From an uncultured Gammaproteobacteria bacterium (lineage in GTDB: Bacteria; Pseudomonadota; Gammaproteobacteria; Xanthomonadales; SZUA-36), in NCBI GenBank assembly GCA_963695135.1, contig CAVOGA010000001.1, positions 292,431 to 356,430 of the forward strand: a stretch of 64,000 nucleotides of DNA, read 5' to 3'. Every line of letters begins with the position of its first letter. Position 1 is the stretch's first letter. The position numbers and the translations under genes are program-made. A model generated the notes under the pieces. It worked only from the letters and a program-made list of their open reading frames with translations, searched no databases and was not told the DNA's origin. Positions 44,625 through 59,636 of the stretch are shown in pieces.

Positions 44625-45240
44625 TCAGTCTGACGTCCCGCCACCCAGGTTGGCCGACTGATCGACCATGATCAGCTCATCCATCGGAAAGCCATGCGCC
44701 CCGGCCATGGCCCGAAGTTCGCCAGGGTGGCCTCCGGCAGTGCTCGGCGTGCGCGACAGTATCCACAGGTAGCCCCGGTCGGGACCGGAAATCAGCGAGT
44801 AGCGGTAATCCGGCGCCGTCCTCGTCCAGGGCCATGATGTGATAGCCACCGTAGAAGGGTCCGAAAAAGGAGACCTTGAGGGAACCCGACGTCCGGCGCC
44901 CCGATGAAATAGGCCTTGCCTTCAATATCGTCCCAGGCGCCCTTGTCTTCCTTGAAGCCGCGGTTGAGTACCGATACCCCGCCGTCCTCCCGCCAGGCGT
45001 ATTCCGCGGTGACCGCGCTCAGGCCGCGCTCAAAACGGTGATCCAGCCGCGCGATCTCGTACCAGCGTCCCAGGTAGCGCTCGGCCTCAAAGTCCGTGAC
45101 CGGCTCAACGCCCTCGGGCGGATGACGAGCAGGCTGCAGGCCACCAGGAATGCGGTTGACAGCAGGGCCGCCAGCGGTAGCCGGAACGCAACGGGCGCCG
45201 CCCGGCACCGGGCAAGGGGATAGCTGCTCTGTTGGCTCAT
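44625..45240 (-). pseudogene. blc: bacterial lipocalin (Blc-like outer-membrane lipoprotein), about 3 frameshifts
   Basis: Lipobox LVAC in one frame; FEAERYLGRWYEIARLDHRFERG...DIEGKAYF in a second; LKVSFFGPFYGGYHIMALDEDG in a third; DYRYSLISGPDRGYLWILSRTP in a fourth. Confidence 0.8.
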
Positions 45241-45314
45241 AAGATTATCCTAAACAAATGTTATACAATCGCCGCCCAATTCCTGAATGATACGGATCGA
45301 ACCCGGAACAGCCC

Positions 45315-46784
45315 ATGCAACCAAGCCGCCACCATCGTCTGGTTTCGCCGCGACCTGCGCCTGCAGGACAACCCGGCACTGGCCGCAGCGCTGGAGCGCG
45401 GCGCGCCCGTTGTCCCAGTGTATCTCTTCTGCGCCGGACGAGGAAGGCGCTGGGCGCCGGGTGGCGCCAGCCGCTGGTGGCTGCACCATGCCCTGGAAAG
45501 CCTGCAGTCGGCCCTGGCGGAGCGTGGCCTGCCGTTGGTATCTGCGACGCAGCTGCCAGTCTCGACGGACTGCGCAGTCCCTGGCACGGAGACCGGTGCG
45601 GACGCAGTCTACTGGAATCGCCGCTACGAGCCCGCCATCGTCGCGCGGGATAGGGCATCAAGCAGGCGCTGCGCGATGACGGTCTGCAGGCCAGGAGTTT
45701 TAACGGCTCGCTGATCTGGGAGCCGCACGAGAGTCAGCACGCAGACGGGCGAGCCCTACCGCGTGTTCACGCCCTTCTGGAAATCACTGCGCGCGCGGCC
45801 TGCCCCTTCCCCGTGCCCGCTGCCGGAGGTGAAGTGGCTGCCACCGGAAAATAATCCGGCGAGTGAAACACTGGAGTCACTGGCACTGCTGCCCCACCCT
45901 GGACTGGGCGGACCGCTTCACGGAACGCTGGACGCCGACACTGGCGGGTGCGGAAACGGCGCTGGCGGAGTTCCTTGCCGGGCCGATCAGCGGCTACCCG
46001 GACCGCCGCGACCGCCCGGCGCAAGAAAGGCACATCGCGCCTGTCACCGTTCCTGGCCCACGGGCAGCTGGGACCCCGGCAGGTGTGGGCCGCAGTCCAC
46101 GCGAGCGGCGCGGCAGACAGCAATGACGGCTACAAATTCCTCAGCGAAATCGCCTGGCGGGAGTTTGCCTACCACCTGCTGGTGCACTTCCCGCATACGC
46201 CGGAGCAGGCGCTGTACGACAAGTACGATAACTTCCCCTGGCAACCGGACCAGGCACAGTTGCGGGCCTGGCAGCGGGGGCAGACCGGCTACCCGATTGT
46301 CGATGCCGGCATGCGCGAACTGTGGGCCACCGGCTGGATGCACAACCGGGTGCGCATGATCGTCGCCTCCCTGCTGGTCAAACACCTGCTGCAACCCTGG
46401 CAGGACGGCGCCCGCTGGTTCTGGGACACGCTGGTCGATGCCGACCTGGCCAGCAACACCATGGGCTGGCAGTGGTCCGCCGGCAGCGGCGCCGATGCGG
46501 CCCCGTATTTCCGCATCTTCAACCCGATTCTGCAGGGTGAAAAATTTGACCCGGACGGCGCCTATGTAAAGCGCTGGGTGCCGGAGTTGAAGGACATGCC
46601 GGCCAGGTACATTCATAACCCCTGGGAGGCCCCGCCGGAAATCCGTCGCAGCGCGGGCCTGCGCCTGGGTGACAACTACCCGAAACCGGTGATCGAGCAC
46701 AAGACGGGGCGCGAACGCGCGCTGGCGGCGTTGCAGGCCAACAAGGCCCGCAATGAAGCAGCGCAAGAGGAGCACACGTCGTGA
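45315..46784 (+). pseudogene. phrB: deoxyribodipyrimidine (CPD) photolyase, at least 4-5 frameshifts; start uncertain
   Basis: IVWFRRDLRLQDNPAL / GADAVYWNRRYEPAIVARDR / IKQALRDDGLQARSFNGSLIWEPHE / YRVFTPFWKSL / TLDWADRFTERW...GYPDRRDRPA / TSRLSPFLAHGQLGPRQVW...GWMHNRVRMIVASLLVKHL...WQWSAGSGADAAPYFRIFNP. These blocks are spread over all three frames. Confidence 0.85.
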
Positions 46785-47564
46785 GCGGGGCTCTGGTGCC
46801 GGGCGACCGGGATGCGCTGGTGGTCGGCGCCAGCCGCGGTATCGGACTGGCACTGGCCAGCGCCCTGCTGCAATCAGACAGCAGATCACGAATCTGGCAG
46901 CCGGGTGTTCGCCACCTTTCGCGGGGAAACACCACCGGCCGCACTGGAAGCCCTGGCAGAACGTTTTGGGACGCGACTCCAACTGCTGCGCTGCGAACTG
47001 GCTGACGATGCCTCCATCGCGGAACTGGCCAGCCAACTCGCGGCCGCCAAGGCAATCCTCGGCCTGACCCTGCACGCCGCCGGCATTCTGCACGAGGGCG
47101 AACTCCAGCCGGAAAAGGCGCTGCAGCAGGCCCGGCGTGAGTCCCTGGCCCGCCTGTTTGAGATCAACAGCATCGCGCCCCTGCTCATCGCCCGGGCAGT
47201 CCTGCCCCTGGTCCCCCGGCAAGGCGTGAGTCATTTCGCCGCACTGTCGGCCATGGTTGGCAGCATCGGCGACAACCGCATAGGCGGCTGGTACGCCTAC
47301 CGCGCCTCCAAGGCAGCCCTGAACCAGTTGCTAAAGACCCTCGCGATTGAGGCCCGTCGCACCCACCCCGGGCTCTGCGTCACATCGATTCACCCGGGAA
47401 CCACGGACACCGCCCTGTCGAAACCCTTCCAGGGCAACGTTCCTGAGAACCGCCTGTACACGCCGGCCCAGTCGGCGGAGCGCATTCTGCAGGTGGTGCT
47501 GGACGGCACCCCTGAAACTTCCGGCCGTTTCATGAACTGGAACGGCGAACCCCTCCCCTGGTAA
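46781..47564 (+). pseudogene. SDR family oxidoreductase, one frameshift (~46880)
   Basis: GTG 46781 overlaps the phrB stop. ALVVGASRGIGLALA (TGxxxGxG-type motif) lies in one frame; the rest (YRASKAALNQL catalytic YxxxK) is in ORF 46812..47564. Confidence 0.82.
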
Positions 47565-47576
47565 ACGGAGACCCTC

Positions 47577-48561
47577 ATGAAACCACAGCCGGAACACACG
47601 GAACACCAGCAGTTACACCATCGGCGCCGCCGCGCGCCTGACCGGGCTCAGCACGCAGCTGATCCGAGCCTGGGAACAGCGCTACGGCGCCGTGGTGGCC
47701 GAACGTTCAGACAATGGGCGCCGCTGTTACAGCGCCGCAGACGTGGAGAAGCTCGGCTTGCTCAAGGCCCTGACGGACCGGGGCATCGCAATCAGCACGA
47801 TTGCCGGCCTGGACCGCACGGCCCTCCTCGCACAGCTCAACGAAGCCGACCAGGTTGCACTCAGGCCGCTCGAAGGCAAGGTCCGCGTGGTGGCGTTGGG
47901 CGCCAGGGTTTCCGAACTGCTGGAGCTGGACGTGGTGCCCACCAACCCGATTGAACTGGTGGCCCGGGGCGTTGAGACAGATCGCTTTCTTGCGGATGCG
48001 CGCGGCCTGGCGCCGGATGTTCTGGTGATCGAGACCGGCAGCCTGGGTCCCGACAGCCGTTCCTGGCTGGAGTCCGTGCGCCAGTCAACGGGCGCCGGGG
48101 AAGTCCTGGTGGCCTACGGATTTGCGCGCGGCGCGGATGAACGGGAACTCGCCGCGCACGGATTCCGCCTGCTGCGCACGCCGATCAACGGCGAAGAGCT
48201 GGCGGTCGCCATCCTTGCCGCCGCGGTCAAGCTGCGCTCCGGCGACTACTTCAATGCGCCGGTGGAAACGCGCACGGCCCCGGCACGCCCGGTGGTAGAC
48301 ATCCCGCCCCGCCGTTTTACCGAGGCCCAGCTCGTCGCCCTGGCAAGGATCAAGAGCGCCGTGGACTGCGAGTGTCCCAACCACATGGCGGACGTGGTCC
48401 AGACCCTGTCCGCCTTTGAAAGCTACTGCGCGCAATGCGAGGACCGTAACGACGACGACGCGGCATTGCACGCCTACCTGCACCGCAGCACCGCCCAGGC
48501 GCGGGCCCTGATGGAGGTCGCCCTGGCGCACCTGGTCGAAGAAGAGGGCCTGACCCTGTAG
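47577..48561 (+). pseudogene. MerR family regulator with a Rossmann-like middle domain and a 4-Cys C-terminal module; one frameshift just after the start (~47600)
   Basis: ATG 47577 is in frame 0. The HTH (YTIGAAARLTGLSTQLIRAWEQRYGAVVAERSDNGRRCYSAADVEKL) is in frame 1, with TGA at 47578 and no start codon before it. C-terminus: DCECPNH...YCAQCE. Confidence 0.8.
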
Positions 48562-48710
48562 GGACTTGCATCTTGTTTATCTTTTGTATATGATTAAATC
48601 ATTCCTTAGTTAAACAAGTCTTTAACAAAGGAGTGCGACTTCCCAACGATTGTTCGCATCTCCCTCTGCACTTCGCAATCCCATCACTCCGATGGATGTG
48701 AACAATCCCT

Positions 48711-48740
48711 CGCCCGCCGTCACACCGGCGGGCGTTTTTT
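48711..48740 (+). terminator. intrinsic terminator, plus strand
   Basis: CGCCCGCC / GGCGGGCG stem with an 8-nt loop, followed by TTTTTTATT; about 150 nt downstream of the MerR stop. Confidence 0.7.
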
Positions 48741-48812
48741 ATTCCTCCTCGCCAACCAATGGTGGCTTAGTTGGCGGTTGTGGTGGGGCGACCCGGTACT
48801 GACCGGCCGGAC

Positions 48813-50364
48813 TCACAGGCGGGCAGGGTCGGCGATGATCTGCTCGGCGGTCGCCAGGATTGCTTCGCGGCGATCTTCGGCCATGCGGTCCCAGTTGCGG
48901 TAGACCATGCCGATACGCGGGTTTTTTTCCAGGCGCGCCCGGTGGCGCTCCATGAAGTGCCAGTAGAGCGGATTGAAGGGACAGGCCTTGTCGCCGCTGC
49001 GCGTTTTCACGTCGAAGTGGCAGCCGGCGCAGTGATCGCCCATCTTGTTGATGTAATTACCGGAGGAAACATAGGGCTTGCTGGCGATCACGCCGCCGTC
49101 GGCAAACTGGCTCATGCCCCGCGTATTCGGCATCTCCACCCATTCGATCGCGTCGATGTAGACGCCCAGGTACCAGGCATCCACCGCGTCCGGGTGCACG
49201 CCCAGCAACAGGGCGAAGTTGCCGGTCACCATCAGGCGCTGGATGTGGTGCGCGTAGGCGTGCTCCAGGGACTGGCCGATGGCCTGTCGCATGCAGGCCA
49301 TGCGGGTCTCGCCGGTCCAGTAGAACTCCGGCAAAGGCGCTTCGTGCCCGAGCTCGTTCAGCGCCGCGTAGTCCGGCATGCGCGTCCAGTAGATGCCGCG
49401 CATGAACTCGCGCCAGCCGATGATCTGGCGCACGAAGCCCTCCACCGAGGCCAGCGGATAGCTGTCCGGGTCAGACTTCCACGCCTCGAGGACCGCCTCC
49501 ACCACCTCCCGCGGCGACAGCAGCTTGCTGTTCATGGCAAAAGACAGGCGCGAGTGGAACAGGGCCCAGTCGCGGTCGGTCAGCGCATCCTGGTATTTAC
49601 CGAAGTGCGGCAGCAGCTCCGCGATAAAGTGTGCCAGCAGTTCCTCGCACTGCTCGCGGCTGACCGGCCAGGACAAGGTATCGCCGGCGATCGAGCCCAG
49701 GGTCGGGATCTCGTGACGCTCCAGGCGCGCCCGGGCGGCGGTCACATCGTTGCTGAACAGCAACGGTTCAGGGAGCTCGATGGATTTGGGCAGCGACTTG
49801 CGGTTTTCCACGTCAAAGTTCCACTGGCCACCGACCGGCTCACCGTCCTCGTCCATCAGCCAGCCGCTGTCGCGCCGGATTCGCCGGTAGAAATGCTCCA
49901 TGCGTTGTTGCTTGTCCGCGGGAAACACCTCACCGAGCGCATCGAAGGTGACCAGGAAGTGTTCCGTACCGCAGCAGCGACCGGGGATATGCAGACCATC
50001 GCAGAACTTCGAGAGCTGTTGGAGGAGGCGGAACTCATCCGGACGCTGGTACTCAAAGACCTCCGCGCCGCTGTGCCTCAACAAATGGGTCAGCAGGGCG
50101 GGAAGGTCCTGGAAATCGGCCGTCGTCGTCCAGGTCCAGGTGCAGCACCCGGTGGCCGCGCGACTGCAGCTGATCGGCGAAGGCCTGCATGGCGAGAAAA
50201 AAAGCGAGCACTTTCTGCACGTGGTGACGCACGTAGGTCGCCTCCTGGTGGAGCTCGGCCAGCACGTACAGCGTGTCGGGATCGGTCTCGCCCAGCCAGG
50301 AGTGGGCATCATTGAGCTGATCGCCCAGGACCAGGCGCAAACGCTTGCAGGCGGGGACGTTCAC
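48813..50364 (-). pseudogene. FeS-BCP type cryptochrome / (6-4) photolyase family protein (CryB/PhrB-like), one frameshift (~50125)
   Basis: N-terminus KRLRLVLGDQLN...HRVLHLDLDD lies in ORF 50053..50409; TADFQDLPALL... to the end lies in ORF 48813..50312. Four-Cys Fe-S pattern incl. HCAGCHFD...ACPFNPLYW. Putative GTG 50364 overlaps the DUF2256 stop. Confidence 0.85.
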
Positions 50365-50555
50365 GAGGCGCCAGCCGTCTGCGCGCCCTGGCGGCGCCCC
50401 CGGCGGCATCGCTCAGAACAGTACTTCACCTCGTCCCAGCACTCCGCCCACTTGCGTCGCCACTCAAAGGGGCGATCACAGACCGGACAGAGCTTGGTCG
50501 GGCTTCGGGTCCGCGCCGGCCCACGACAGGCGCTATGAGCCGGGCCGCTCGGCAA
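50361..50555 (-). CDS. DUF2256 zinc-ribbon protein
   Basis: CPVCDRPFEWRRKWAECWDEVKYCSERC (CxxC...CxxxC). The start is uncertain: the annotated ATG overlaps the corrected end of the upstream cfa-like gene by 23 nt. Confidence 0.7.
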   Translation of the reverse strand: MPSGPAHSACRGPARTRSPTKLCPVCDRPFEWRRKWAECWDEVKYCSERCRRGRRQGAQTAGAS

Positions 50556-51777
50556 TCAGGTGCACGTCGGAGATGGCGCGCTCGATAAATCCGCCTTCGC
50601 AGTAGCACAGGTAGTACTCCCACATGCGGATAAACGCCTCTGAGTAACCCAGCTCACGCACCTCGTCGAGGCGCGCGTAGAACCGTTTGCCGCCAGTGAT
50701 TCAGGGTCAGGGCATAGTCGCGGCCGATGTCATGCAGGCCGGTCACCATCATGTCGCTCTGCCCGGCGATCGAGTTCACCATGGCCTTGACTGACGGCAG
50801 GTTGGAGCCGGGGAAGATGTAGCGCTGGATAAAGTCCACGGACCGCTTGGCCTCTTCATAGCGGGGCTCGCAATGGTGATCGCCTGCATCAGCAGCCGGC
50901 CGCCCGGCTTGAGCAGTTCGCCACACTTGTGGAAGTAGGTGTCGTACTGCTGCCAGCCGATCGCCTCGATCATCTCGATGCTCACCAGCTTGTCGTACTG
51001 GCCCTGCAGATCGCGATAGTCAGACAGCAGCAATTCGATGCGGTCCTCGCAGACCCGCCTCCGCAATCGCCGCTGGCCGCCCAGCGATGCTGCTCCGCGG
51101 AAATGGTGGTGGTGGTCACCCGGCAGCCGTAGTGCTGCGCCGCGTGGATCGCCAGCCCGCCCCAGCCGGTGCCGATCTCCACCAGGTGGTCGCCGGGCTG
51201 CAGGTCCAGGCGCCGGCAGACCGCGTCCAGCCGGGCCAGTTGCGCCTCGTGCAGGGGCGTATCCGGGGTCTCGAATATCGCGCTGGAGTACATCATGGTC
51301 TCGTCCAGCCACAGGGCAAAAAAGTCATTGCCCAGGTCGTAGTGCGCCGAGATATTGCGCCGCGCGCCCTCACGCGTGTTGCGGTTCACCCAGTGAAACA
51401 GTTTCTGCAACGGCTGCGGTAAAGCGCGCCGTGCCACCTTCCATGTCATCGAGCACATGGCGGTTGCGCAGCAGCATCTGCACCAGCGCAACCAGGTCGT
51501 CACAGTCCCAGGAGCCCTGCATATAGGCCTCGCCGGCGCCGATGGAGCCGCCAAAGGCGATATCGGAATAAAACGACGGCTCGCGCACGGTGATCGTCGC
51601 GGCCGGCGCATCACCGGCGCCGAACGTGTGCTGCTGCTCGCCGTCGACGAGCACCAGGCGGCCGATCTCCAGCCGGGCCAGTTGCTTGAGCACCAGGCGC
51701 TCGGCCAGCTGATCCAGGCGGCGGGGCTTGGGTGTGCCGCCCAGGTGGCGGTCGGAAGCCAGACTGACAGCTTTCAT
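50533..51777 (-). pseudogene. cyclopropane-fatty-acyl-phospholipid synthase family (SAM-dependent lipid methyltransferase-like), about 4 frameshifts
   Basis: Blocks in four ORFs plus a fifth frame: EAYMQGSWDCDDLVAL / NISAHYDLGNDFFALWLDETMMYSSA...VEIGTGWGGLA / DKLVSIEMIEAIG...LKPGGRLLMQAITI / RYEEAKRSVDFIQRYIFPGSNLPS / FYARLDEVRELGYSEAFIRMWEYYLCYCEGGF...* (stop 50535-50533). Confidence 0.85.
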
Positions 51778-52553
51778 GAACTTTGCTCCATTTTCCGGGC
51801 ATCGATTTTATTCGGATGGTCGTGGACCGGCGAGCCCTTCAGCCACAGTTTCAGGGCCTGCCAGTGTATCGCCGCCATGACCTTGCCGGTCATGAACGGG
51901 ATGACTGGCCAGGGCGCCGGCCAGCACCGGGCCGGTGAGCGGGCGGCGTTCCAGGTCCAGCGTCGCATCAAAGATCTTGTCACCTTTACGGTGATTGGCC
52001 ATGTGCACCGTCAGGCGCTCGTCGGGGGCGCGAAAGCGCCAGTCATAATCCACGTCCATTTCCATGAAGGGCGAGACATGCATGGCCTTGACCGGCTCGA
52101 AAGCGCTGGTGACGGCCGACCCGCCCGCTGTCGTCCCGCAGCACGTAGCAGTGCCGCTCACCCCAGGGCGTGTTGTTGACCTCGGCCACGATCGCCTCGA
52201 CCCGCGAGTCCGGCCTGGTCAAAGCAGTAGTAAAAGCTCACCGGGTTGAAGCAGTAGCCGAAATACTGGAGGTGGGTCAGCAGGCGGATGGGGCCGTCCA
52301 CGGTCGCGCCCGACTGCTCCAGCACGTGCTCGCGAACGCAATCGGCCAGCGGCCGCTGCGGGTCGCCGAGGTGATCCTCGCGCCGGAAGCGCGCCGGCGC
52401 GGCCCGCCGCGTGGACCAGAGCCAGCGGCCGTCAAACACCGTGTCCAGCTCGTCCAGGTCGAGGTAGACCATGAACAGCCGGTAGCTGAACTCGTGCTCC
52501 ACCGGGCGCATGCGCCGGTGTCTAACTTGCCCTTGATAGATTGCGCTGTGCAT
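51774..52553 (-). pseudogene. DUF1365 family protein, about 3 frameshifts
   Basis: MHSAIYQGQVRHRRMRPVEHEFSYRLFMVYLDLDEL...FYYCFD / AIVAEVNNTPWGERHCYVL / FEPVKAMHVSPFMEMDVDYDWRF / PFMTGKVMAAIHWQALKLWLKG. ATGA overlap with the cfa-like start. Confidence 0.82.
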
Positions 52554-53810
52554 AACTGCGGTCGGTGGCGAAGTGTTCCAGCGCCGCCAGGGCGCTGACC
52601 ACGCCGTCCTCGTGAAAGCCGTTGCGCCAGTAGGCGCCGCAGAAACTGGTGCGGCGACCCTGGTTGAGTTCGCGCTGCCGGGCCTGCGCGGCAACCGCCT
52701 CCGGGCGTAAACACCGGGTGGCTGTAGGAATAGCGTGTCGATAATACGTTGCCGGGTCGATCGCATCGGTGTGGTTGAGCGTCACGCAAAACGGCTGCTG
52801 CGACGCCAGGCCCTGCAGAATGTTCATGTTGTAGGTCACCGCGGCGGGCCGGTCCGGCTTCTCCAGCAGGTGATAATTCCATGCCGCCCAGGCCAGGCGG
52901 CGTTTCGGCAGCACCGTGTGATCCGTGTGCAGAACGGCCTCGTTTTCCTGGTAGCCGATCGCACCCAGTACTTCGCGCTCAGCGTCGCTGGGATCCTTCA
53001 GCATCGCCAGCGCCTGGTCGCTGTGGCAGGCGATGAATACGTGGTCGAAGCGCTCCGCCTCCTGCCCGCGCACCTTCACCGTGACATGGTCGGCAAAACG
53101 CTGATGGCCTCGACCGGCGCGCCCAGGCGGATGCGCTCGCGATGTCCGGCAACCAGCGGCTCCAGGTAATTGGCTCGAGCCGCCCTTGATCACCCGCCAG
53201 GTCGGCCGGTCATCCACCGACAGCATGCCGTGGTTCTTGAAAAAGCGCACAAAGAACTGCGCCGGCATATGGCGCAGGCGCTCCTGGGTTGCCGACCAGA
53301 TCGCCGAACCCATGGGCACGATGTAGTGCTCCTGGAACGCGCGGCCGTAAGCCTTCCCGCTCCAGGTACTCACCCAGCGTTCCGGCATCCGGCGCATCGG
53401 CTGCGAGCAGCGCCGGCGCCTCGCGGTGAAAGCGCAGAATGTCGCGAATCATGCCGAGAAACGACGGCCGCAACAGGTTGCTGCGCTGGGCGAACAGGCG
53501 AGTTGAGCGACGTGCCGTTGTATTCCAGCCCGGTGCGCTCATGCTTGCACGCTGAAACTCATGTCGCTGTCCTGCCAGGGCACCTGCAGCGTCATCGAGC
53601 ATCTCGATGAAGTTCGGGTAGGTCCAGTCGTTGAACACGATAAAACCGGTGTCGACGGCGTAGTGCTGGCCGTCGAGCTCCACATCCACCGTGTGCGTGT
53701 GGCCGCCGATGCGCCGGTCCGCCTCAAACACGGTGATGTCGTGCTCCCGGCGCCAGCTTCCAGGCCGCCACATTGCCGGCAATGCCGGTGCCCACCACGG
53801 CGATTTTCAC
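52522..53810 (-). pseudogene. NAD(P)/FAD-dependent oxidoreductase (flavin amine-oxidase / desaturase-like), at least 6 frameshifts
   Basis: GTG 53810 gives VKIAVVGTGIAGNVAAWKLA (GxGxxG). Later blocks HDITVFEADRRIGGHTHT, FIVFNDWTYPNF, LFAQRSNLLRPSF, YGRAFQEHYIVPMGSAIWS, FFKNHGMLSVDDRPTWRVIKGGS, FDHVFIACHSDQAL, FCGAYWRNGFHEDGV lie in alternating frames. Confidence 0.82.
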
Positions 53811-53850
53811 GGCGTCGCTTCCGCGGCGAACGCGGTGGGATTCACGCCGC

Positions 53851-54755
53851 TCACGGGACACCGGCTTGCAGGTCCCAGACCAGGCCGACGGCGGCCATGG
53901 CGCGCAGGACGTAGTAGGTCAGGTCAATTTCCCACCAGTAGAAGCCCTGGCGCGCAGCCAACGGGATAATGATGATGATTGTTGTGCCAGCCCTCACCGA
54001 AGGTCAGCAGGCCAGCCAGAAATTGTTGCGGCTGTCGTCGCGCGTTGCGTAGCGGCGGCTGCCCCAGCGGTGCGCCAGGGAATTGATGGTAAAGGTGGCG
54101 TGGTACAGCACGACGGTGGAAATGAAGAAACCCCACACCAGCATCTGCCCCCCACTGGTGCCCAGGCCGGGCGCAACACGTTCCAGCAGCATGCCCAGCA
54201 GCAACATGCTCACGGCAAACAGCACCGGCACCGCAATGTCGAAACGGTCCAGGAAACGCAGTTCGGGAAAGCGCATCAGGTCCTTGACCCGCTTCTCCTG
54301 GATCGGGAAGTGTTCGCGGGTCAGGAACCAGGCCGTATGGCTGTGCCAGAAACCATGCTGCACCGGCGAATGCGGATCTTCAGGCTGCTCGGAAACCACG
54401 TGGTGATGGCGGTGATGCGCCGCCCACCAGATCGGCCCGCGCTGCACCGAGGCCGCGCCGATGAAGCCGAAAATAAACTGCATCGGCCGCGAGGTCTTGA
54501 AGCTGCGGTGGGAGAAATAGCGGTGATAGAAGCCGGTGATGGCAATCATGCGCACCGCGTAGGCCAGCAAAGCGACCACCACGGCCACCGGGCTCCAGCC
54601 CACCCAGAACACGGCCAGGCAGGCCAGGTGCATGCCGATATAGGGCAGGGTGCGCAGCCAGTCGACTCTGCCGGCCGGGGCCGCGCCATCGGCAGCACAG
54701 ATCCAGCCGCGCTGGCGTCGAACCAGCTCATCAATACCCGCAGGGGATTTCTCAT
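53851..54755 (-). pseudogene. membrane fatty-acid (acyl-CoA/acyl-lipid) desaturase, about 3 frameshifts
   Basis: Three His boxes: HRYFSH, HHRHHH, HNNHHH. N-terminus (MRNPLRVLMSWFDA), core (ORF 54004..54633) and tail (LLTFGEGWHNNHHHYP / ARQGFYWWEIDLTYYVLRAMAAVGLVWDL) are in different frames. Confidence 0.82.
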
Positions 54756-54762
54756 TGGCGCG

Positions 54763-55299
54763 TTACCATTGTTGCGGCACCTTGCGAAGTTTGGACGTGT
54801 CGTAACCCATGTCTGCCATCAGCGTGACCAGTTCCGCGTAGCGGTCATCGGGAATGGCGGGCTCGCGCGCCATCAGCCACACATAGTCGCGCTTGTTGCG
54901 TCCAATGATGGTGATGGAGTAGTCCTCATCCAGGTAAACGATACGAAAATCGGCCTTGATCGGCCAGATAAAGCGCATGCCCCAGACGGCGTTGTTCTCG
55001 CTCTGCACGAAGCCCTTGGGGTTGTACTCCTTTCGCTCGCCATCGAAACCGCCCTCGCGAAACGTGAAGGTGGTGGCAATCGTGCCGTCATCATTGAGCG
55101 CGTAACTTTCCACCGCGTTGTAGGCATCGGTCTCGATGAAGGTCGGAATGTTGCCGATCACGTACCAGTCGCCCATGAAGCGCTCCAGATCCACGTAATC
55201 GACGGGCTTCAGCGGCTCCATGCTGCTACAGCCCACGGCCAGCAGCGCCAGGGCGGCAAGGCCCCAGCTGCGCAACGATGTCGTTCGAAATGATTTCAT
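54763..55299 (-). CDS. lipocalin family lipoprotein (Blc-like), intact
   Basis: 178 aa; lipobox LAVGCSS; FMGDWYVIGNIPTF lipocalin motif. Confidence 0.85.
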   Translation of the reverse strand: MKSFRTTSLRSWGLAALALLAVGCSSMEPLKPVDYVDLERFMGDWYVIGNIPTFIETDAYNAVESYALNDDGTIATTFTFREGGFDGERKEYNPKGFVQSENNAVWGMRFIWPIKADFRIVYLDEDYSITIIGRNKRDYVWLMAREPAIPDDRYAELVTLMADMGYDTSKLRKVPQQW

Positions 55300-55324
55300 G
55301 ATTGATTCTCATCAGGTTCTTCAG

Positions 55325-56102
55325 TCAGCCGCGGTTGCGCGGCGGACCGGGAAAAAACGCATTTGTGCGCTTTATGTAGTCGGCGTAAGCCGGCCGCCGG
55401 TCTTTTATGTCCTTTTCCAGCAGGGTCACACCGGAAACCCGCAGCAGCAGGAAGGACATGAGCAGCGGCGAGCCGATGGTCCACCAGCCGCCAGCCGCGA
55501 CCGCAATCAGGTAGTAGCCCCACCAGAGGGCAAACTCACCAAAATAGTTCGGGTGACGAGTGTAGCGCCACAGGCCCGAATCGAGCACCTTGCCCTGGTT
55601 ATCCGGGTTGGCCTTGAAGCGCGCCAACTGGTTATCTCCACCGACCTCGAACACCATCCCCAGGCACCACAGGGCTACGCCCTGCCAGGTCCAGCCAGCC
55701 CAGCGGCGCGGCACCGCCAATGCCCAGCGCCAGGGGCATGGCGACCAGCCAGGCCAGCAGCGCCTGCAGGCCGAACACGATGTACAGGCTCTTGAACCAG
55801 AAGCCTGGCTGGTTGTTGGCACGGATTTCCTGGTAGCGACGGTCTTCTCCGTCGCCATGGTTGCGCTTGGTGATGTAGTAGGAGAGACGCAAGGACCAGG
55901 CCGTAACCAGCACCAGGACCAGCACGGCCCGGCCGCTCATCACATCCAGCTGCCAGGCGTAACCCAGCGCCACGATCAGAAACATCAGCGACCAGAGGCT
56001 GTCAACGATGCTGACATCCTTGCGCGGCACGCTGATGCCCCAGAACACCAGGGCAACGGCGACCAGGCAGGCGAGCATGATGCTGTAGGCAATCCAGTCC
56101 AT
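55325..56102 (-). pseudogene. DUF1295 family membrane protein (steroid 5-alpha-reductase / ICMT-like fold), one frameshift (~55690)
   Basis: ORF 55632..56102 is genuine to ...AAPLGWLDLAG. It continues in ORF 55325..55858 (LWCLGMVFEVGGDNQLARFK...GLWRYTRHPNYFGEFALWWG). Confidence 0.8.
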
Positions 56103-56119
56103 GTTCAGCGCGTTAACAT

Positions 56120-56671
56120 TCAGTGGGTCAGCCAGGTCATTGCGGTCGGCCTGCCGGGCACGGTGGTCCCGTCAAACCGCTCAGCCAGCCGGCTCAGCAA
56201 GGGCATGAGCAAACCCCACATCAGCGCAAGCGCCAGTAGGGCGGGCAAGGGCTGCATGAGCTCCAGCGCACCCAGGCGGGCGCCCAGCAAGTACACCAGC
56301 GGACCGCTCACCAGGCCGAAACCGACCGCCAGCAAGGGCCGGCCCCGCAGCCAGCGCATGCTGCCATTCAATGTTGTCGCGAAACCGGCCCACATGAAAA
56401 TGATCCAGTAGGGGGCGATGCCCGGCAAAAACAGGCCTTCCCGGTAGCCCACGAGGCCAGCGGCAACCAGTGCACTGTCCAGCACCAGCCCGATCAACAT
56501 GGCCAGCACGACCAGGATGGCTTCCTGCCCCGGGCGGGCCACGATGCTCAGGTGCAGGGCGACAACCATCAGCACGATCATCGGGCCCACCCAGGGCAGG
56601 CCGGAGGCAGCGCCGAGCACACTGCCAAGCCAGCCGGCCTGGAAGGCCAGGAAGTTAACGATCGTGTTCAT
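56120..56671 (-). CDS. polytopic membrane protein (DUF2878-like; family name from memory)
   Basis: Start ATG 56671 (MNTIVNFLAFQAGWLG) overlaps the upstream stop (ATGA); about 5 TM segments. Confidence 0.7.
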   Translation of the reverse strand: MNTIVNFLAFQAGWLGSVLGAASGLPWVGPMIVLMVVALHLSIVARPGQEAILVVLAMLIGLVLDSALVAAGLVGYREGLFLPGIAPYWIIFMWAGFATTLNGSMRWLRGRPLLAVGFGLVSGPLVYLLGARLGALELMQPLPALLALALMWGLLMPLLSRLAERFDGTTVPGRPTAMTWLTH

Positions 56672-57756
56672 GTCTGACTGTCCTGCTGACGCACGAAGCG
56701 GTAGTGGCTCACGAGCCACTCCTGTCCGTTGTTCAGGCCGAACAGTTCGGCGCAGGCCATGAAGAAGATACGCCAGCGCTGAATCCACTGCTGTACCCTG
56801 GCGTCGCCGTAGACCGGCGCCAGCACCTCGCGGGCCTCTTTACGGTTCGCATCAAGCAGCGCCAGCCAGGCATTGGCAGTCTTTTCGTAATGCGTGCCAT
56901 CCCAGAGCCACTGTTCTTCCAGGCGCAGGTCACGCTGGAAGCGCAGGGGCAGGTCAGCGCTGGGCATGATGCCGCCGCTGAAAAAGTGCCGGCTCATCCA
57001 GTCGCTGGGCCCGTTGTCCTCGAAGGCATAAGGCGTGGAACGGTGGCAGAAGATGTGCATGAAAAACTGTCCGCCCGGTTTCAGCCAGCGACTGATCCGT
57101 CCGAACAGGGTCTGGTAGTTCCGCATGTGCTCGAACATTTCGACAGAAACGGCGCGGTCGAAGCGCTCGTCGATATCGAAATCGTTCATGTCCGCAGTGA
57201 TTACCCGCACGTTGTCCAGGCCGCGCCGCTGGACCTCCGACTCGATATAGCGCCGCTGCGGCGCCGAATTGCTCACCGATGTCACGCGGCAATTCGGATA
57301 TTGGCTGGCGATCCACAGGGTCAGGGAGCCCCAACCGCAGCCCAGGTCGAGGACATCCATACCGTCTTCGATACCGGCGCGCTCGGCGCTGATTGACAGC
57401 GAAAGGGCCTCCGCGTCATCCAGGGTCCGGGTGGTTTCATCCCAGAAGCACGAGCTGTATTTGCGGTGCTTGCCCAGCGCGATGGCGAAAAATTCCGGCG
57501 GCACCTCGTAATGCTGTTCGTTCGCAAGCTCGGGAACCGGCGCAACCTCGGCCTGTTCCATCGCACGCACGAAGGCATTCTTTAAGTCCGCGGATGCCTC
57601 CACGTCCAGCGCCTGGATCTCCGCCAGGCGATCCCGGCACAGCCGGCGGATGCCCGCGCGAATGACACTGTCCGGGACCAGGCCCATTTCGGCCCAGCCG
57701 ATCGCCCGGCTGCCGGATTTGCCCGTGTTGCTCATCTGTTCTGCTTCCACCGCCAT
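56668..57756 (-). CDS. SAM-dependent methyltransferase of the CFA-synthase / mycolic-acid cyclopropane synthase family, intact
   Basis: 362 aa; SD GGGAGG 5 nt before the ATG; HYEVPPEFF; VLDLGCGWGSL (motif I); FDRAVSVEMFEH. Confidence 0.88.
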   Translation of the reverse strand: MAVEAEQMSNTGKSGSRAIGWAEMGLVPDSVIRAGIRRLCRDRLAEIQALDVEASADLKNAFVRAMEQAEVAPVPELANEQHYEVPPEFFAIALGKHRKYSSCFWDETTRTLDDAEALSLSISAERAGIEDGMDVLDLGCGWGSLTLWIASQYPNCRVTSVSNSAPQRRYIESEVQRRGLDNVRVITADMNDFDIDERFDRAVSVEMFEHMRNYQTLFGRISRWLKPGGQFFMHIFCHRSTPYAFEDNGPSDWMSRHFFSGGIMPSADLPLRFQRDLRLEEQWLWDGTHYEKTANAWLALLDANRKEAREVLAPVYGDARVQQWIQRWRIFFMACAELFGLNNGQEWLVSHYRFVRQQDSQT

Positions 57757-57778
57757 GTCAACCTCCCATTATGAGCCC

Positions 57779-58708
57779 TCAGCTTTTGCGGGGCACCAGT
57801 TTTTCCAGTCGGGCCAGGCCCGTATCCACGTCCGTGCCCAGCGACTCGATGCCGCAGCGGCGCAGGGCGTCCAGGTAACGGACACTCGCGGCGCCGCCCA
57901 TGAGGACGGGCACCGCCGCCGCCTCCACCAGCGCCGGCAGCCTGTTCCTGAGCAAATCACCGGACAGTTCCATCAGCGCGGACAGCACAATGGCGGCACA
58001 GCCGGTTTTTTCCGCCGCCACCGCCAGTTCTTCCAGGGGCATATCTGCACCGAGGATGACCGGACGAAAGCCGGCCTCGTTGGCGCCCAGCGCCAGCAAC
58101 AGCAGGCCGATTTCGTGGCGCTCGCCGGGCACACAGGCCATCAGCAACCGCGGCCCGGGACCACTGCGGGCCCGGTGGTGAAAACGGGCGCCCAGGGTGT
58201 TGCGCAGGTAAAACCCGAAGAAATGCTCCTCGGCGATCGATCCCTCGCCGCTGGACCAACGGCGACCCAACTCCACCAGCAGCGGGTATACAAGACGCCG
58301 GGTGACTTCCTGAATGCGGAACCTGGACAGCGCCTCGTTATACACCGCGTCCAGCGCCTCTTCGTCAAACCGGATGATCGCCGACAACATGCCATCCATC
58401 AGCCGCTGCCAGGTATCCTGCTCCCCGGGGCGGCCGGCGGCATCTTTTGCCGGCGGCCTGCCTTGGTTTTCCTCACGATCCAGGTAAGAGCCTACCTCGC
58501 CGATGCGCATACCGCGGTCAAGTAGCGCGACCACCCGGTGTATGCGGTCGACCTGCGCCTGGCTGTAGAGCCGGTGGCCACTCGCCTTGCGTTGCGGCAT
58601 GACGATGCCGTAGCGGGTCTCCCAGGCGCGTAAGGTAATGGCCTTGACGCCAGTGAGGTGCGCCACGGCCCGAATGGGATAAAGACCCGTTTGCGCGTCA
58701 TCGTTCAT
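57779..58708 (-). CDS. litR: CarH/LitR-type MerR regulator with cobalamin-binding domain (light-dependent repressor family)
   Basis: ATG 58708 (alternative TTG 58732). MerR HTH (YPIRAVAHLTGVKAITLRAWETRYG). Wx9EH motif (RRWSSGEGSIAEEHF). B12 lower-ligand motif ExHxxG (GERHEIG) in a Rossmann-type domain. Confidence 0.85.
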   Translation of the reverse strand: MNDDAQTGLYPIRAVAHLTGVKAITLRAWETRYGIVMPQRKASGHRLYSQAQVDRIHRVVALLDRGMRIGEVGSYLDREENQGRPPAKDAAGRPGEQDTWQRLMDGMLSAIIRFDEEALDAVYNEALSRFRIQEVTRRLVYPLLVELGRRWSSGEGSIAEEHFFGFYLRNTLGARFHHRARSGPGPRLLMACVPGERHEIGLLLLALGANEAGFRPVILGADMPLEELAVAAEKTGCAAIVLSALMELSGDLLRNRLPALVEAAAVPVLMGGAASVRYLDALRRCGIESLGTDVDTGLARLEKLVPRKS

Positions 58709-58795
58709 CGGCAAGGCACTGATCCTGTTCAAAGCAACTCCCGCTGGCGGAGGTTCAGTGTACGGCCGGCCCAGGGTCTAAGCAATTTCCTATAC

Positions 58796-58821
58796 AAAAA
58801 AACCCCGGCATCATGCCGGGG
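58796..58821 (-). terminator. intrinsic terminator, minus strand, with no protein gene upstream of it
   Basis: CCCCGGCA / TGCCGGGG stem (58803-58821) with a 3-nt loop. On the minus strand it is followed by 7 T (58802-58796). Confidence 0.7.
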
Positions 58822-59035
58822 TCCAAGGTCATTCGGGAATGAATGAGGGTACAGAGGATCACATTCCCAGGGAGTAAACGAGTTAGGATTCAGCGGCGGC
58901 GCTATGTTCCGCGCTTCATCATTAACCTGTCGCGAATGTAATTCAGCTCTCGTGAAAGCCGCGTCAAGTTAAATTCACCCTGTGTGAATTATGATACAAA
59001 AACTATACGACTTCTCCACACGGAGCACCTGAAGT

Positions 59036-59536: not shown

Positions 59537-59636
59537 ACCCGGGGGCGCCCGTGCACGGTCCGCAGGCATGACTGATGGACCTTAAAAACCCCCGGGTCCT
59601 GCCGTATGCTCTGCGCTTACCTTGAGGGGGGTCGAC

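Follow-up and report, generated by a model that had tools for sequence, protein, structure and literature searches.

A predicted photoprotection island with two DNA photolyases, a furan-fatty-acid-type lipid operon and two light-regulator-type repressors in an uncultured gammaproteobacterium-like organism

Within a 64-kb stretch of DNA (the window), we found known photoprotective genes in a new arrangement: an island of ~15 kb that carries two DNA photolyases, a furan-fatty-acid-type membrane-lipid operon and two light-regulator-type repressors (Pfam matches and gene calls) and that probably holds two small RNAs in addition. The best explanation, which we rate at a probability of about 0.72, is that the island lies on the chromosome of an uncultured gammaproteobacterium-like organism, serves photoprotection and is mis-assembled in the record, with light control by LitR-family proteins and furan-type lipids as its product. 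We compared the window with L081, a metagenome contig 97.7% identical to it across 8.2 kb, and with the relatives L082 (a genome), L083 and L085. The gene families named in a first-pass annotation of the same DNA were all recovered above Pfam thresholds and in the order given there, including a second lipocalin at the left border and, by family matches, the CPD photolyase, the SDR and the second MerR on the plus strand. The features are as follows.

44625 to 45240, minus strand: lipocalin2, a Blc-type lipocalin lipoprotein with 5 single-base indels (74% identity to an intact 206-aa Lipocalin_2 protein of L082, no stops)
45251 to 45279, minus strand: predicted CarH/LitR-type operator between lipocalin2 and the photolyase, with two perfect tandem 11-bp repeats (TTGTATAACAT TTGTTTAGGAT) and one degenerate unit
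45315 to 46784, plus strand: class I CPD photolyase, ~11 indels (FAD_binding_7, E = 1e-92)
46781 to 47564, plus strand: SDR with a GTG start, 1 indel (adh_short and adh_short_C2 matches; 75% identity to the L082 SDR)
47577 to 48561, plus strand: MerR2, a 327-aa LitR/CarH-family regulator without a B12 domain, 1 indel near codon 7 to 12
48565 to 48592, plus strand: promoter TTGCAT-N17-TATGAT just after merR2, enclosing two perfect 11-bp repeats (TTGTTTATCTT TTGTATATGAT)
48598 to 48741, plus strand: sRNA-A, a conserved and structured candidate small RNA of ~145 nt downstream of merR2
48813 to 50364, minus strand: FeS-BCP / bacterial (6-4) photolyase, 516 aa, 1 indel (DPRP domain)
50361 to 50524, minus strand: DUF2256 zinc-ribbon-like small protein, one frameshifting difference near 50497 (PF10013, E = 3e-20)
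50533 to 51777, minus strand: CMAS2, a long CFA-synthase-family methyltransferase, ~412 aa, ~5 indels (DUF7884 and CMAS)
51774 to 52511, minus strand: DUF1365 protein, 3 indels (PF07103 matches in two fragments; intact 244-aa copy on L081)
52522 to 53810, minus strand: FAD oxidoreductase, 426 aa, 10 indels (Pfam Amino_oxidase/NAD_binding_8)
53807 to 54731, minus strand: membrane fatty-acid desaturase, 306 aa, 6 indels (FA_desaturase)
54763 to 55299, minus strand: Blc-type lipocalin lipoprotein, 178 aa, intact (Lipocalin_2, E = 7e-40)
55325 to 56102, minus strand: DUF1295 membrane protein of the steroid-reductase / ICMT-like fold family, 258 aa, 1 indel at 55679 (Pfam)
56120 to 56671, minus strand: DUF2878 membrane protein, 183 aa, intact (PF11086, E = 5e-41)
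56668 to 57756, minus strand: CMAS1, a short CFA-synthase-family methyltransferase, 362 aa, intact (CMAS, E = 9e-42)
57779 to 58708, minus strand: LitR, 309 aa, intact, first gene of the 11-gene operon (Pfam MerR_1, B12-binding_2 and B12-binding)
58795 to 58985, minus strand: sRNA-B, a conserved non-coding element that may be a small RNA in its own right or a 5' leader
58991 to 59021, minus strand: promoter-like site TGGAGA-N16-TATCAT with imperfect 11-bp repeats (GTCGTATAGTT TTTGTATCATA) in the litR/CIA30 divergent region
59036 to 59536, plus strand: CIA30-family protein, divergent from the operon (PF08547, E = 3e-42)

From this layout we infer three transcription units: phr-SDR-merR2, with the structured sRNA-A, which has its own promoter, as its 3' end; the divergent lipocalin2 gene; and a 9.9-kb operon of 11 genes in the order litR-CMAS1-DUF2878-DUF1295-lipocalin-desaturase-ufaD-like-ufaO-like-ufaM-like-DUF2256-(6-4) photolyase. 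The 4-base overlaps previously noted at 56668-56671, 51774-51777 and 50361-50364 are real, as seen by mapping the L081 gene calls to the window and by reading the sequence, and further ones join photolyase and SDR (GTGA, 46781-46784) and desaturase and FAD oxidoreductase (L081 gene calls); the remaining intergenic gaps of the minus-strand run are all 31 nt or less. The functional unit is probably larger than the first-pass annotation had drawn it, adding the regulatory region 58709-59035, and it possibly also includes the CIA30 gene, a conserved neighbor at the equivalent position in L082 and L083 whose product is a possible regulon member. The two non-coding elements lying inside the functional unit had been missed in the earlier annotation.

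The enzymes of the large operon can be set against a characterized furan fatty acid pathway. In Rhodobacter sphaeroides, the FAD oxidoreductase RSP1091 is UfaD and the DUF1365 protein RSP1090 is UfaO, and in Rhodopseudomonas palustris RPA2571-2570-2569 is ufaD-ufaO-ufaM (PMC7380195), an order identical to that of the island. By Pfam family and gene order, on which the proposed orthology to these proteins and to Pseudomonas counterparts rests, the FAD oxidoreductase is a candidate UfaD fatty-acyl desaturase, the DUF1365 protein a candidate UfaO (O2-dependent furan ring formation) and CMAS2, by its position after DUF1365, a candidate UfaM. The match to an RSP1087-1091-type core that had been suggested earlier stands for these three, by family and order, but not for the SDR and "CFA-like" genes, which are not proven pathway steps because RSP1087-1089 are dispensable for furan fatty acid synthesis (PMC7380195). 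CMAS1 is 100% identical on L081, 91% identical to its L082 counterpart and only 29% identical to CMAS2, which itself is 89% identical to the L082 protein. The desaturase carries the His boxes HRYFSH, HHRHHH and HNNHHH and scores below threshold against the NCBIfam DesA family model (102 bits, cut-off 400). L082 and L083 lack the DUF2878 gene in an island that is otherwise the same, and the DUF2256 stop overlaps the (6-4) photolyase start (GTGA), with an intact but uncalled 47-aa DUF2256 homologue in L082. Among PDB entries, the last gene product comes closest to the V. cholerae (6-4) photolyase (7YKN, E = 8e-208), with CryB (3ZXS) and PhrB (4DJA) next in rank, and the four cluster cysteines align. 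On the plus strand, the CPD photolyase is 81% identical to an intact 487-aa DNA_photolyase and FAD_binding_7 protein of L082, and the SDR N terminus, VVGASRGIG, was recovered from another frame.

Next to these enzymes stand two regulators of the LitR/CarH type. LitR matched Thermus thermophilus CarH (5C8D) from end to end (E = 4.5e-31) and has the motifs Wx9EH, ExHxxG, SxL and GG, the first two aligned to 5C8D. As had been proposed, LitR shows all the sequence hallmarks of class I AdoCbl-dependent CarH/LitR proteins (criteria from PMC9304148) and is, as far as sequence tells, a genuine CarH-type B12 photoreceptor-repressor; its score against the NCBIfam CarH equivalog model is far below the cut-off (131 bits, cut-off 400), and no protein of the island reaches an NCBIfam equivalog cut-off. 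A TTG at 58732 was rejected as the litR start, the true start being the ATG at 58708. MerR2 combines a CarH-like HTH (best PDB match, 5e-15) with an α/β domain that resembles receiver domains and, at the C terminus, a helical domain in which the motif CxC..H..C..H is invariant; its recognition helix RxWE(R/Q)RY reads RAWEQRY in the window, RxWERRY being the family consensus. MerR2 homologues adjoin photolyase genes in every context examined, and some carry the JGI name "light-induced transcriptional regulator."

Known CarH/LitR operators are built on the motif nnnnTnnACAn (PMC9304148). When we scanned the whole 64-kb window for two-unit sites (threshold of at least 12/14, 0.2 expected), only three strong tandem sites were found, all in intergenic DNA of the island. 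The repeat motif at 45251 to 45279 is the reverse complement of nnnnTnnACAn, and this site is conserved in L082 and L083; the promoter at 48565 to 48592 has the same sequence in L082 and almost the same in L083 and L085. The first-pass annotation had placed all components behind the B12 repressor, and this was not borne out. Both perfect tandem pairs, one at lipocalin2/photolyase and one after merR2, are kept in L082 and L083, where the whole island is present, lipid operon included, with no litR at the locus, whereas 11-bp repeat scoring found no canonical operator at litR's own promoter: the litR-proximal promoter has a single canonical repeat and scores 11/21, no better than shuffles, so that the sequence gives no sign that LitR controls the big operon. 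The promoter-like site at 58991 to 59021 is absent from the litR-less relatives. Because the perfect repeats lie at MerR2-linked promoters and persist in relatives without litR, the B12 LitR is unlikely to be the master switch. Nor is a LitR-led lipid operon special to one locus, since one is present at no fewer than 21 of 80 related loci; in 14 of 25 litR-upstream regions from related loci, three 11-bp repeats score at least 17/21 (shuffles, 0/200). Of the earlier interpretation, the LitR type, the ufaD-ufaO-ufaM match and the parallel with light induction in Pseudomonas are supported.

That parallel rests on published work in which phrB, SDR, FAD oxidoreductase, ufaM and the PME7070-cryB operon are light-induced 25- to 33-fold via LitR-family regulators (PMC9758184), families that the island has as well. 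Like the island, the pplR1/pmlR1 cluster (P. putida KT2440, P. mendocina NBRC 14162) has phrB, a MerR-type LitR-family regulator, SDR, FAD oxidoreductase and "ufaM"; it also has hypothetical proteins in an operon of nine closely coupled genes and a two-gene operon closed by cryB, blue light is the inducer, and the sites recognized by the repressor are of the T(G/A)TACA type and lie at a sigma70 promoter (PMC9758184). We take PME7070-cryB to match the DUF2256 and FeS-BCP pair. Pseudomonas uses a class II LitR with a short LOV protein, whereas the island has a class I B12 LitR, a MerR without the B12-binding_2 bundle and no LOV protein motif in the window; it also joins lipid genes and (6-4) photolyase in one 11-gene operon and adds a membrane desaturase, a second methylase, DUF2878 and two lipocalins. 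As in the Rhodobacter regulon, an SDR and another CFA-like gene accompany the operon (PMC7380195), but in Rhodobacter an ECF sigma/anti-sigma pair answering singlet oxygen takes the place of MerR-type repressors, and the genes are scattered over several loci (ufaM is RSP2144). Class I CarH/LitR proteins of T. thermophilus, B. megaterium and M. xanthus share the domain order, Wx9EH, ExHxxG..S..GG and the RxWExRY recognition helix, and their three tandem nnnnTnnACAn repeats overlapping the promoter are seen in the island's related loci, although the operator at its own litR promoter is degenerate; their known targets are carotenoid genes, whereas here and in the at least 21 related loci litR heads a lipid-modifying operon. 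In Vibrio cholerae, a non-B12 MerR-family regulator co-transcribed with a photolyase (VCA0056-phr) is required, with ChrR, for the blue-light response, and a CFA-synthase gene is light-induced (PMC5241685); the regulator comes first in that operon and MerR2 last in the island's.

As written in the window, most genes between 44.7 and 55.7 kb are broken by ~45 single-base indels. The same genes are intact on L081 and in L082, and the gene calls of the island are likewise intact on L083. Relative to L081 there are 24 single-base gaps (span, 50871 to 55679), 21 of them insertions in the window and 3 deletions; 18 of the 24 do not adjoin an identical base, and the indels are not homopolymer-linked. 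Frameshift-aware protein alignments with L082 place ~20 further indels at 44.7 to 50.5 kb, with no stops, and the 163 coding substitutions relative to L081 are ~80% synonymous and create none. The flanks (GltB, 1501 aa; ABC/HlyD genes; a 254-aa neighbor) and litR-CMAS1-DUF2878 are clean. Given the excess of insertions, the absence of a homopolymer link and of stop codons, and the ~80% synonymous substitutions, the indels are most likely assembly artefacts rather than gene decay, and the island is most likely intact in the living cell. Genuine decay, in a strain without light where relaxed selection on photoprotection let ~45 frameshifts inactivate most genes, seems to us quite unlikely. It would account for indels restricted to the photoprotection genes at 44.7 to 55.7 kb beside intact housekeeping neighbors, a clustering also expected in a dark habitat, and truncations are present in the source contig's public gene calls (P0001, 289 aa). 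Bacterial pseudogenes, however, show a deletion bias and mixed indel sizes, and here 21 insertions face 3 deletions, each of one base; no in-frame stop occurs in ~3,800 codons, the ~80% synonymous share argues for purifying selection up to the present, and indel density follows local SNP density, as expected of a poorly polished long-read metagenome consensus in strain-variable stretches.

The non-coding elements can also be read in more than one way. sRNA-A is predicted to fold into a 5' hairpin, a 12-bp long-range stem enclosing an exposed CAUCUCCCUCUGCAC region and a strong terminator, the top match of the terminator scan. A core of ~60 nt is invariant across four distinct sequences whose adjacent MerR2 proteins are only 66 to 78% identical, with compensatory changes at 4 of 43 predicted pairs; inspection of the alignment by eye found no conserved ORF (the stop codon of the sole candidate is not kept among relatives), and Rfam gave no matching family. 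sRNA-B contains an inverted repeat, GTGAA-N17-TTCAC, around CTTGACGCG, a hairpin (GGGAAUG..CAUUCCC; in relatives, GGGAGUG..CACUCCC) and a strong terminator ending 87 nt before the litR ATG, and it is kept upstream of CMAS1 in L082 and L083. That both are only untranslated regions, sRNA-A the merR2 3'UTR and terminator and sRNA-B an attenuator 5' leader of the lipid operon, is a serious possibility, though we lean against it: no terminator separates merR2 from sRNA-A, and the sRNA-B terminator lies directly 5' of the operon in litR-plus and litR-minus genomes alike, but sRNA-A has its invariant core, shows covariation in stems other than the terminator and has a conserved promoter of its own that contains operator repeats. 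Since 3'UTR-derived sRNAs are common, the two readings are compatible, and sRNA-A is possibly also the 3'UTR and terminator of phr-SDR-merR2. The palindrome around CTTGACGCG, conserved 5' of the lipid operon in the window, L082 and L083, would also suit an island controlled by some other regulator in response to singlet oxygen or general oxidative stress, with LitR and MerR2 controlling their own small units only; an ECF sigma/ChrR pair or a putative GTGAA-N17-TTCAC-binding protein are possible regulators. We hold this to be unlikely. The same families do occur in the sigmaE-ChrR regulon of Rhodobacter and Vibrio (PMC7380195, PMC5241685), and the litR-proximal promoter is without a canonical operator; on the other side, reading of the window, short of a systematic search, revealed no ECF sigma/ChrR pair, no sigmaE-type promoter motif is conserved by eye across three sequences, and litR promoters in at least 21 related loci carry clear three-repeat operators.

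Under light control by LitR-family proteins, the preferred reading, repressors would sit in the dark on tandem 11-bp TnnACA repeats overlapping −10 and −35 elements. MerR2, with its CarH-type recognition helix and putative Cys/His sensor, would hold the perfect-repeat sites in the lipocalin2/phr promoter region and at the sRNA-A promoter, and AdoCbl-bound LitR the weaker sites in the litR/CIA30 region. Light would photolyse AdoCbl, light or photo-oxidation would inactivate MerR2, and both repressors would leave the DNA, releasing the CPD and (6-4) photolyases for DNA repair. Phospholipid-bound vaccenate would then be methylated (UfaM-like), desaturated (UfaD-like) and given O2 (UfaO-like), yielding furan-type fatty acids that may scavenge singlet oxygen, with the second methylase, membrane desaturase, DUF1295, DUF2878, two lipocalins and SDR as putative accessory proteins; some other modified lipid could be made instead, for instance a fatty acid with a methyl branch, a cyclopropane ring or a conjugated diene. 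New here is that MerR2, judged by its sequence, is a member of an uncharacterized CarH-like family with an invariant Cys/His motif, that its gene is followed by the conserved candidate small RNA sRNA-A, and that lipid operons headed by litR are common among uncultured Gamma- and Betaproteobacteria.

The photoprotection island lies in a chromosome stretch of 64% GC, and a mechanical listing of its open reading frames (ORFs) gives a jumble of short overlapping frames to which Pfam still assigns families. These are exactly the families named in the first-pass annotation, in the same order, and the three four-base overlaps that it quoted are real, with two further overlaps present. The genes are arranged as follows.

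58708 down to 48813, minus strand: LitR (MerR_1 + B12-binding_2 + B12-binding), CMAS1 (the short CFA-synthase-family methyltransferase), DUF2878, DUF1295, Lipocalin_2, FA_desaturase, Amino_oxidase/NAD_binding_8 FAD oxidoreductase, DUF1365, CMAS2 (the long CFA-synthase-family methyltransferase; DUF7884 + CMAS), DUF2256, DPRP-type photolyase
Plus strand (assigned from Pfam): CPD photolyase, SDR, second MerR regulator (MerR2)
Left border of the island, minus strand: second lipocalin (lipocalin2)

Because no gap in the minus-strand run is longer than 31 nt, we treat it as one 11-gene, 9.9-kb operon, and the island belongs to a known kind of photoprotective regulon, here in a more consolidated arrangement. 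At its left edge, a secreted protein of ~254 aa (43779-44552, minus strand) with no Pfam match adjoins lipocalin2 in the window and in the relatives L082, L083, and L085 and may be a member of the island. Divergent from litR, at 59036-61749 (plus strand), are a gene for a CIA30-family protein, kept in L082 and L083, and then two bPH_2 (bacterial PH domain) membrane proteins.

Most island genes are split across two or more frames: 11 are broken by ~45 single-base indels between 44700 and 55700, mostly insertions and mostly outside homopolymers, and none falls in the flanks or in litR-CMAS1-DUF2878. Taken at face value, the broken frames would make the island a cluster of truly decayed pseudogenes, with substitutions spread across codon positions, stop codons, and deletion-biased indels of mixed size as the expected marks. 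We found the opposite in a comparison with a JGI metagenome contig, L081, which carries the exact CMAS1 protein and on which all nine genes are intact. Across window positions 59102-50840 the two are 97.7% identical, with 164 mismatches and 24 one-base gaps; the gaps comprise 21 insertions and 3 deletions in the window, all between 50871 and 55679, and the litR-CMAS1-DUF2878 part has 7 mismatches and 0 gaps. Every indel is 1 nt long, ~80% of the 163 in-gene mismatches are synonymous third-position changes, none creates a stop, and the density of indels tracks the local SNP density relative to L081. A homopolymer origin was ruled out, as 18 of the 24 gaps have no adjoining identical base.

Frameshift-aware alignment to the homologues of L003, a distant locus, gave many single-base shifts and zero in-frame stops. 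In L082 (73 to 91% protein identity, same flanking genes) every island gene is intact, and its proteins, aligned to the window, revealed ~20 further one-base shifts and no stops in lipocalin2, the CPD photolyase, the SDR, MerR2, and the (6-4) photolyase; the 254-aa gene beside lipocalin2 was clean in the same alignment, and the window's long housekeeping ORFs outside the island are unbroken. Because the changes are biased toward one-base insertions, include no nonsense mutations, show substitutions of the kind left by purifying selection, and follow SNP density, we read the shifts as probable assembly errors, of the kind that enter a long-read metagenome consensus where strains vary; the source contig is 1.36 Mb long. 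The pattern does not match pseudogene decay, and real decay of the island is improbable. The case is a warning, since an unprocessed reading of the public assembly would label the island as a string of pseudogenes. Identity to L081 rises from ~96.8% (50840-55700) to 99.8% (55700-59100) at ~55.7 kb, a jump that suggests either recent recombination or a sweep of litR-CMAS1-DUF2878 between strains or a chimeric assembly consensus.

The enzymes of the operon were compared with the furan fatty acid pathway described by Lemke et al., in which UfaM (a SAM methylase of the CFA-synthase family) methylates vaccenate to 11Me-12t-18:1, UfaD (RSP1091, FAD oxidoreductase) desaturates the product, and UfaO (RSP1090, DUF1365) closes the furan ring with O2; the dimethyl product comes from a second methylase, FufM, the R. 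palustris gene order is ufaD-ufaO-ufaM, and RSP1087-1089 are dispensable (PMC7380195). In the window, an Amino_oxidase + NAD_binding_8 gene, whose described FAD-oxidoreductase counterparts by family are RSP1091/RPA2571 (PMC7380195), lies directly upstream of the DUF1365 gene across a 10-nt gap, and PF07103, the family expected of UfaO, is found on two fragments (E = 2e-37 and 1e-17). For UfaM there are two CMAS-family candidates, CMAS1 and CMAS2, with 29% identity to each other; CMAS2 occupies the R. palustris ufaM position, but RSP1089, at the same position in R. sphaeroides, is dispensable. Compared with the Ufa pathway, the window carries all three of its families, ordered as in R. palustris, plus a second, divergent methylase; judged by families and gene order, this supports a predicted furan-type product for the lipid operon. 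The likeness to RSP1087-1091 proposed in the first-pass annotation stands for the families and gene order of UfaD and UfaO and loses force for RSP1087-1089, given their dispensability.

At the end of the operon, the (6-4) photolyase carries a PF04244 DPRP domain and matches PDB entries 7YKN (E = 8e-208), 3ZXS (2e-140), and 4DJA (3e-124), and its four cluster cysteines, C..CxxC..C, line up with the [4Fe-4S] ligands of the V. cholerae enzyme; we regard its assignment as an FeS-BCP/(6-4) photolyase as firm. In Pseudomonas, LitR-type regulators are documented to mediate light induction of these gene families (PMC9758184), which supports the Pseudomonas part of the likeness to LitR-controlled light regulons drawn in the first-pass annotation, and in V. 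cholerae such induction runs via a MerR-like protein and ChrR (PMC5241685).

LitR (309 aa) aligns over its full length with Thermus thermophilus CarH (5C8D; E = 4.5e-31). Its HTH matches MerR_1 (E = 2e-15) with LRAWETRYG opposite LRQWERRYG of CarH, an RxWERRY-like recognition helix, and its four-helix bundle matches B12-binding_2 (E = 3e-12) with Wx9EH intact, RRWSSGEGSIAEEHF opposite EAWHRGEIGVAEEHL of 5C8D. A hand count on the 5C8D alignment gives PGERHEIG, 41 residues, SAL, 25 residues, and GG for the Rossmann module, in agreement with D/ExHx2G-x41-SxT/V-x22-27-GG except that the third position is L, not T/V; the His ligand in ExHxxG is kept. Pérez-Castaño et al. (PMC9304148) rely on the same motifs to tell true CarH photoreceptors apart from paralogues that are independent of B12, and on all three modules the sequence argues for the B12 photoreceptor-type LitR initially claimed. 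Against the NCBIfam CarH equivalog NF052513, LitR scored 130.7 bits for a cut-off of 400, and because this is far under the cut-off we class it as a member of the CarH family and not as an equivalog. None of the island proteins reached an equivalog cut-off in the NCBIfam search.

Dozens of metagenome-assembled genomes (MAGs), from Woeseiaceae, Methylophilaceae, Burkholderiales, Acidiferrobacterales, and other groups, share the gene order LitR-CMAS1-DUF2878-DUF1295-(DUF6134)-lipocalin-(desaturase)-FADox-DUF1365-CMAS2. In at least 21 of 80 related loci, LitR immediately precedes the lipid operon. A search of open-access full text found no paper on a class I LitR heading such a lipid operon. The (6-4) photolyase pair fused at the operon 3' end, together with the convergent phr-SDR-merR2, occurs only in the window, L082, and L083; the latter two hold the whole island at the same chromosomal position without litR and DUF2878. 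These two genes flank CMAS1, which L082 (17687-19920) and L083 (11559-13792) keep alone (91% identical), and their absence on both sides of a conserved gene implies that genes were gained or lost in two separate events. A joint horizontal replacement of CMAS1 and litR was ruled out, as CMAS1 is as close to its L082 counterpart as its neighbors are. The best CMAS1 relatives in the genome-contig collection are 52 to 65% identical. L003 has a DUF6134 gene (12462-13091) between DUF1295 and lipocalin that is missing from the window, L081, and L082; a gap of ~700 bp between DUF1295 and lipocalin is seen in many of the 80 related loci (the Pfam scan covered L003 only).

MerR2 has 327 aa after a single frame correction near codon 7-12. 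Pfam shows an HTH alone, with B12-binding_2 absent even at E 0.01. The MerR2 family has ~120 detected members of ~325 aa, some of them named "light-induced transcriptional regulator" by JGI. Common to the family are a recognition helix of the CarH type, RxWERRY, and, toward the C terminus, an invariant block, C-E-C-P..H..E.Y...C...H. The invariant Cys/His positions (C264, C266, H269, C287, and H298 of P0005, the L082 homologue, in family alignment A3) lie in a C-terminal helical hairpin and form a candidate metal or Fe-S site. The best PDB sequence match of MerR2 is the CarH HTH (5e-15), and its middle region matches receiver domains weakly. A confident AlphaFold model of P0005 (74% identical to MerR2; pLDDT 85.6) shows an HTH, a five-stranded α/β domain, and a helical hairpin, and Foldseek with this model returned CarH and PhyR-type receivers. 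Class II LitR, represented by Pseudomonas PplR/PmlR, combines an HTH and B12-binding_2 with a short-LOV partner; MerR2 does not match this plan, and the LOV motif NCRF[LM]Q was found in none of the six frames of the window. Given this domain and structure evidence, MerR2 is not class I and, as far as the present evidence goes, not class II either. Its homologues adjoin photolyase genes in every genomic context examined.

In related loci, the DNA ahead of litR carries two or three 11-bp TTGTAYAnnnn units in tandem, which overlap a TTGACA-N17-TATAAG/TATAGT promoter; read on the opposite strand, the unit is the CarH repeat published as nnnnTnnACAn (PMC9304148). A three-repeat score of at least 17/21 was reached in 14 of 25 related litR-upstream regions and in 0 of 200 shuffles; the 220 nt directly upstream of litR in the window scored 11/21, no better than shuffles, and by eye the litR-proximal region holds one good 11-bp unit beside a TTGCTT-N17-TACACT promoter. 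We scanned the window for two units at 11-bp spacing (threshold, at least 12/14; 0.2 sites expected), and only three sites reached the threshold, all intergenic and all inside the island.

45251-45268: operator site 1, between lipocalin2 and photolyase, perfect TGTnnA pair
48573-48590: operator site 2, four bases past the merR2 stop, perfect TGTnnA pair
58993-59010: operator site 3, between litR and the CIA30 gene, imperfect pair (58991-59021)

Sites 1 and 2 are kept in L082 and L083, and the imperfect site 3 is missing from both. In the window, the imperfect repeats overlap the likely CIA30 promoter, TTAAAT-N15-TATGAT. Pseudomonas-type TGTACA palindromes were also considered; there are 6 in the window versus 3.7 expected, 0 of them in regulatory regions, and the 11-bp direct-repeat model was preferred. 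In our reading, MerR2 would be the ancestral regulator of the photolyase side and the B12 LitR an added layer, with a putative operator that is weak or displaced in the window's lineage. For these reasons the earlier picture of the whole island standing behind a B12 repressor is not established.

Two candidate non-coding elements were delineated in the island.

48565-48741, plus strand: sRNA-A (L082 10985-11168; L083 4856-5040; L085 8790-8980)
58795-59021, minus strand: sRNA-B, upstream of the lipid operon (L082 19673-19885; L083 13542-13740)

Just after merR2, a TTGCAT-N17-TATGAT promoter holds both 11-bp repeats. The sRNA-A element comprises ~145 nt without a credible ORF and ends in the strongest terminator of 43.5-62 kb; it also directly follows merR2 in L082, L083, and L085, the last of which has no lipid operon nearby. 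An invariant core of ~60 nt is common to the four sequences, with the stretch CAUCUCCCUCUGCAC exposed, and the consensus fold has 43 pairs, 4 of them compensatory, split evenly between a 12-bp long-range stem and the terminator. The sole small-ORF candidate, judged by eye on the alignment, loses its stop codon between relatives, and sRNA-A may also be the 3' untranslated region of the phr-SDR-merR2 operon. Scans of metagenome contigs found no exact match to the sRNA-A promoter pattern and, for the core pattern, no contig beyond one already known. At 9745-11388 of L085, merR2 and sRNA-A are followed by a B12-binding radical SAM enzyme, not by a photolyase or lipid operon.

From the end of the second-strongest terminator (58824-58800, minus strand) to the litR ATG is 87 nt, and no gene precedes this terminator on the minus strand. 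In the 190 nt that lead up to it, the palindrome GTGAA-N17-TTCAC around CTTGACGCG is conserved, and a hairpin of sRNA-B has changed in a compensatory way between lineages (GGGAAUG/CAUUCCC versus GGGAGUG/CACUCCC). It folds better than shuffles (z = -3.2), no short ORF in the window sequence of this region was judged convincing, and a promoter-like TGGAGA-N16-TATCAT under the imperfect repeats is present in the window only. The element may be a second small RNA, or else a leader that attenuates the lipid operon. Rfam gave no match across the whole window at gathering thresholds, and permissive scans of sRNA-A and sRNA-B gave sub-threshold, terminator-driven hits (anti-hemB, SorX, and others; 15 to 25 bits).

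We put at roughly one in three the probability of the joint reading, in which a class I LitR switches modified lipids, MerR2 is layered on top, and MerR2 controls sRNA-A. Class I LitR, with its B12-dependent light sensing, would directly switch on furan-type or otherwise modified membrane lipids, not carotenoids, in many uncultured Gamma- and Betaproteobacteria. In the window's lineage, MerR2 would be a second, undescribed LitR-family sensor layered over LitR, composed of a CarH-type DNA-binding head, a receiver-like domain, and a CxC..H..C..H module that is possibly a metal or Fe-S redox or light sensor, and it would control sRNA-A with its exposed anti-Shine-Dalgarno-like loop CUCCCUCU. If true, sRNA-A would be a post-transcriptional arm of a bacterial light response.

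Furan fatty acids have been proposed to scavenge singlet oxygen in membranes. To our knowledge, the regulators known to control them are limited to sigmaE-ChrR in alpha-proteobacteria and, indirectly, LOV/class II LitR in Pseudomonas. The intact compact operons on L081, L082, and L003 are candidate sources for heterologous production of these lipids, and the MerR2 family and the small RNA offer concrete extensions of the LitR regulon that can be tested. A version led by a B12 photoreceptor and widespread in environmental bacteria would tie cobalamin availability to membrane photoprotection.
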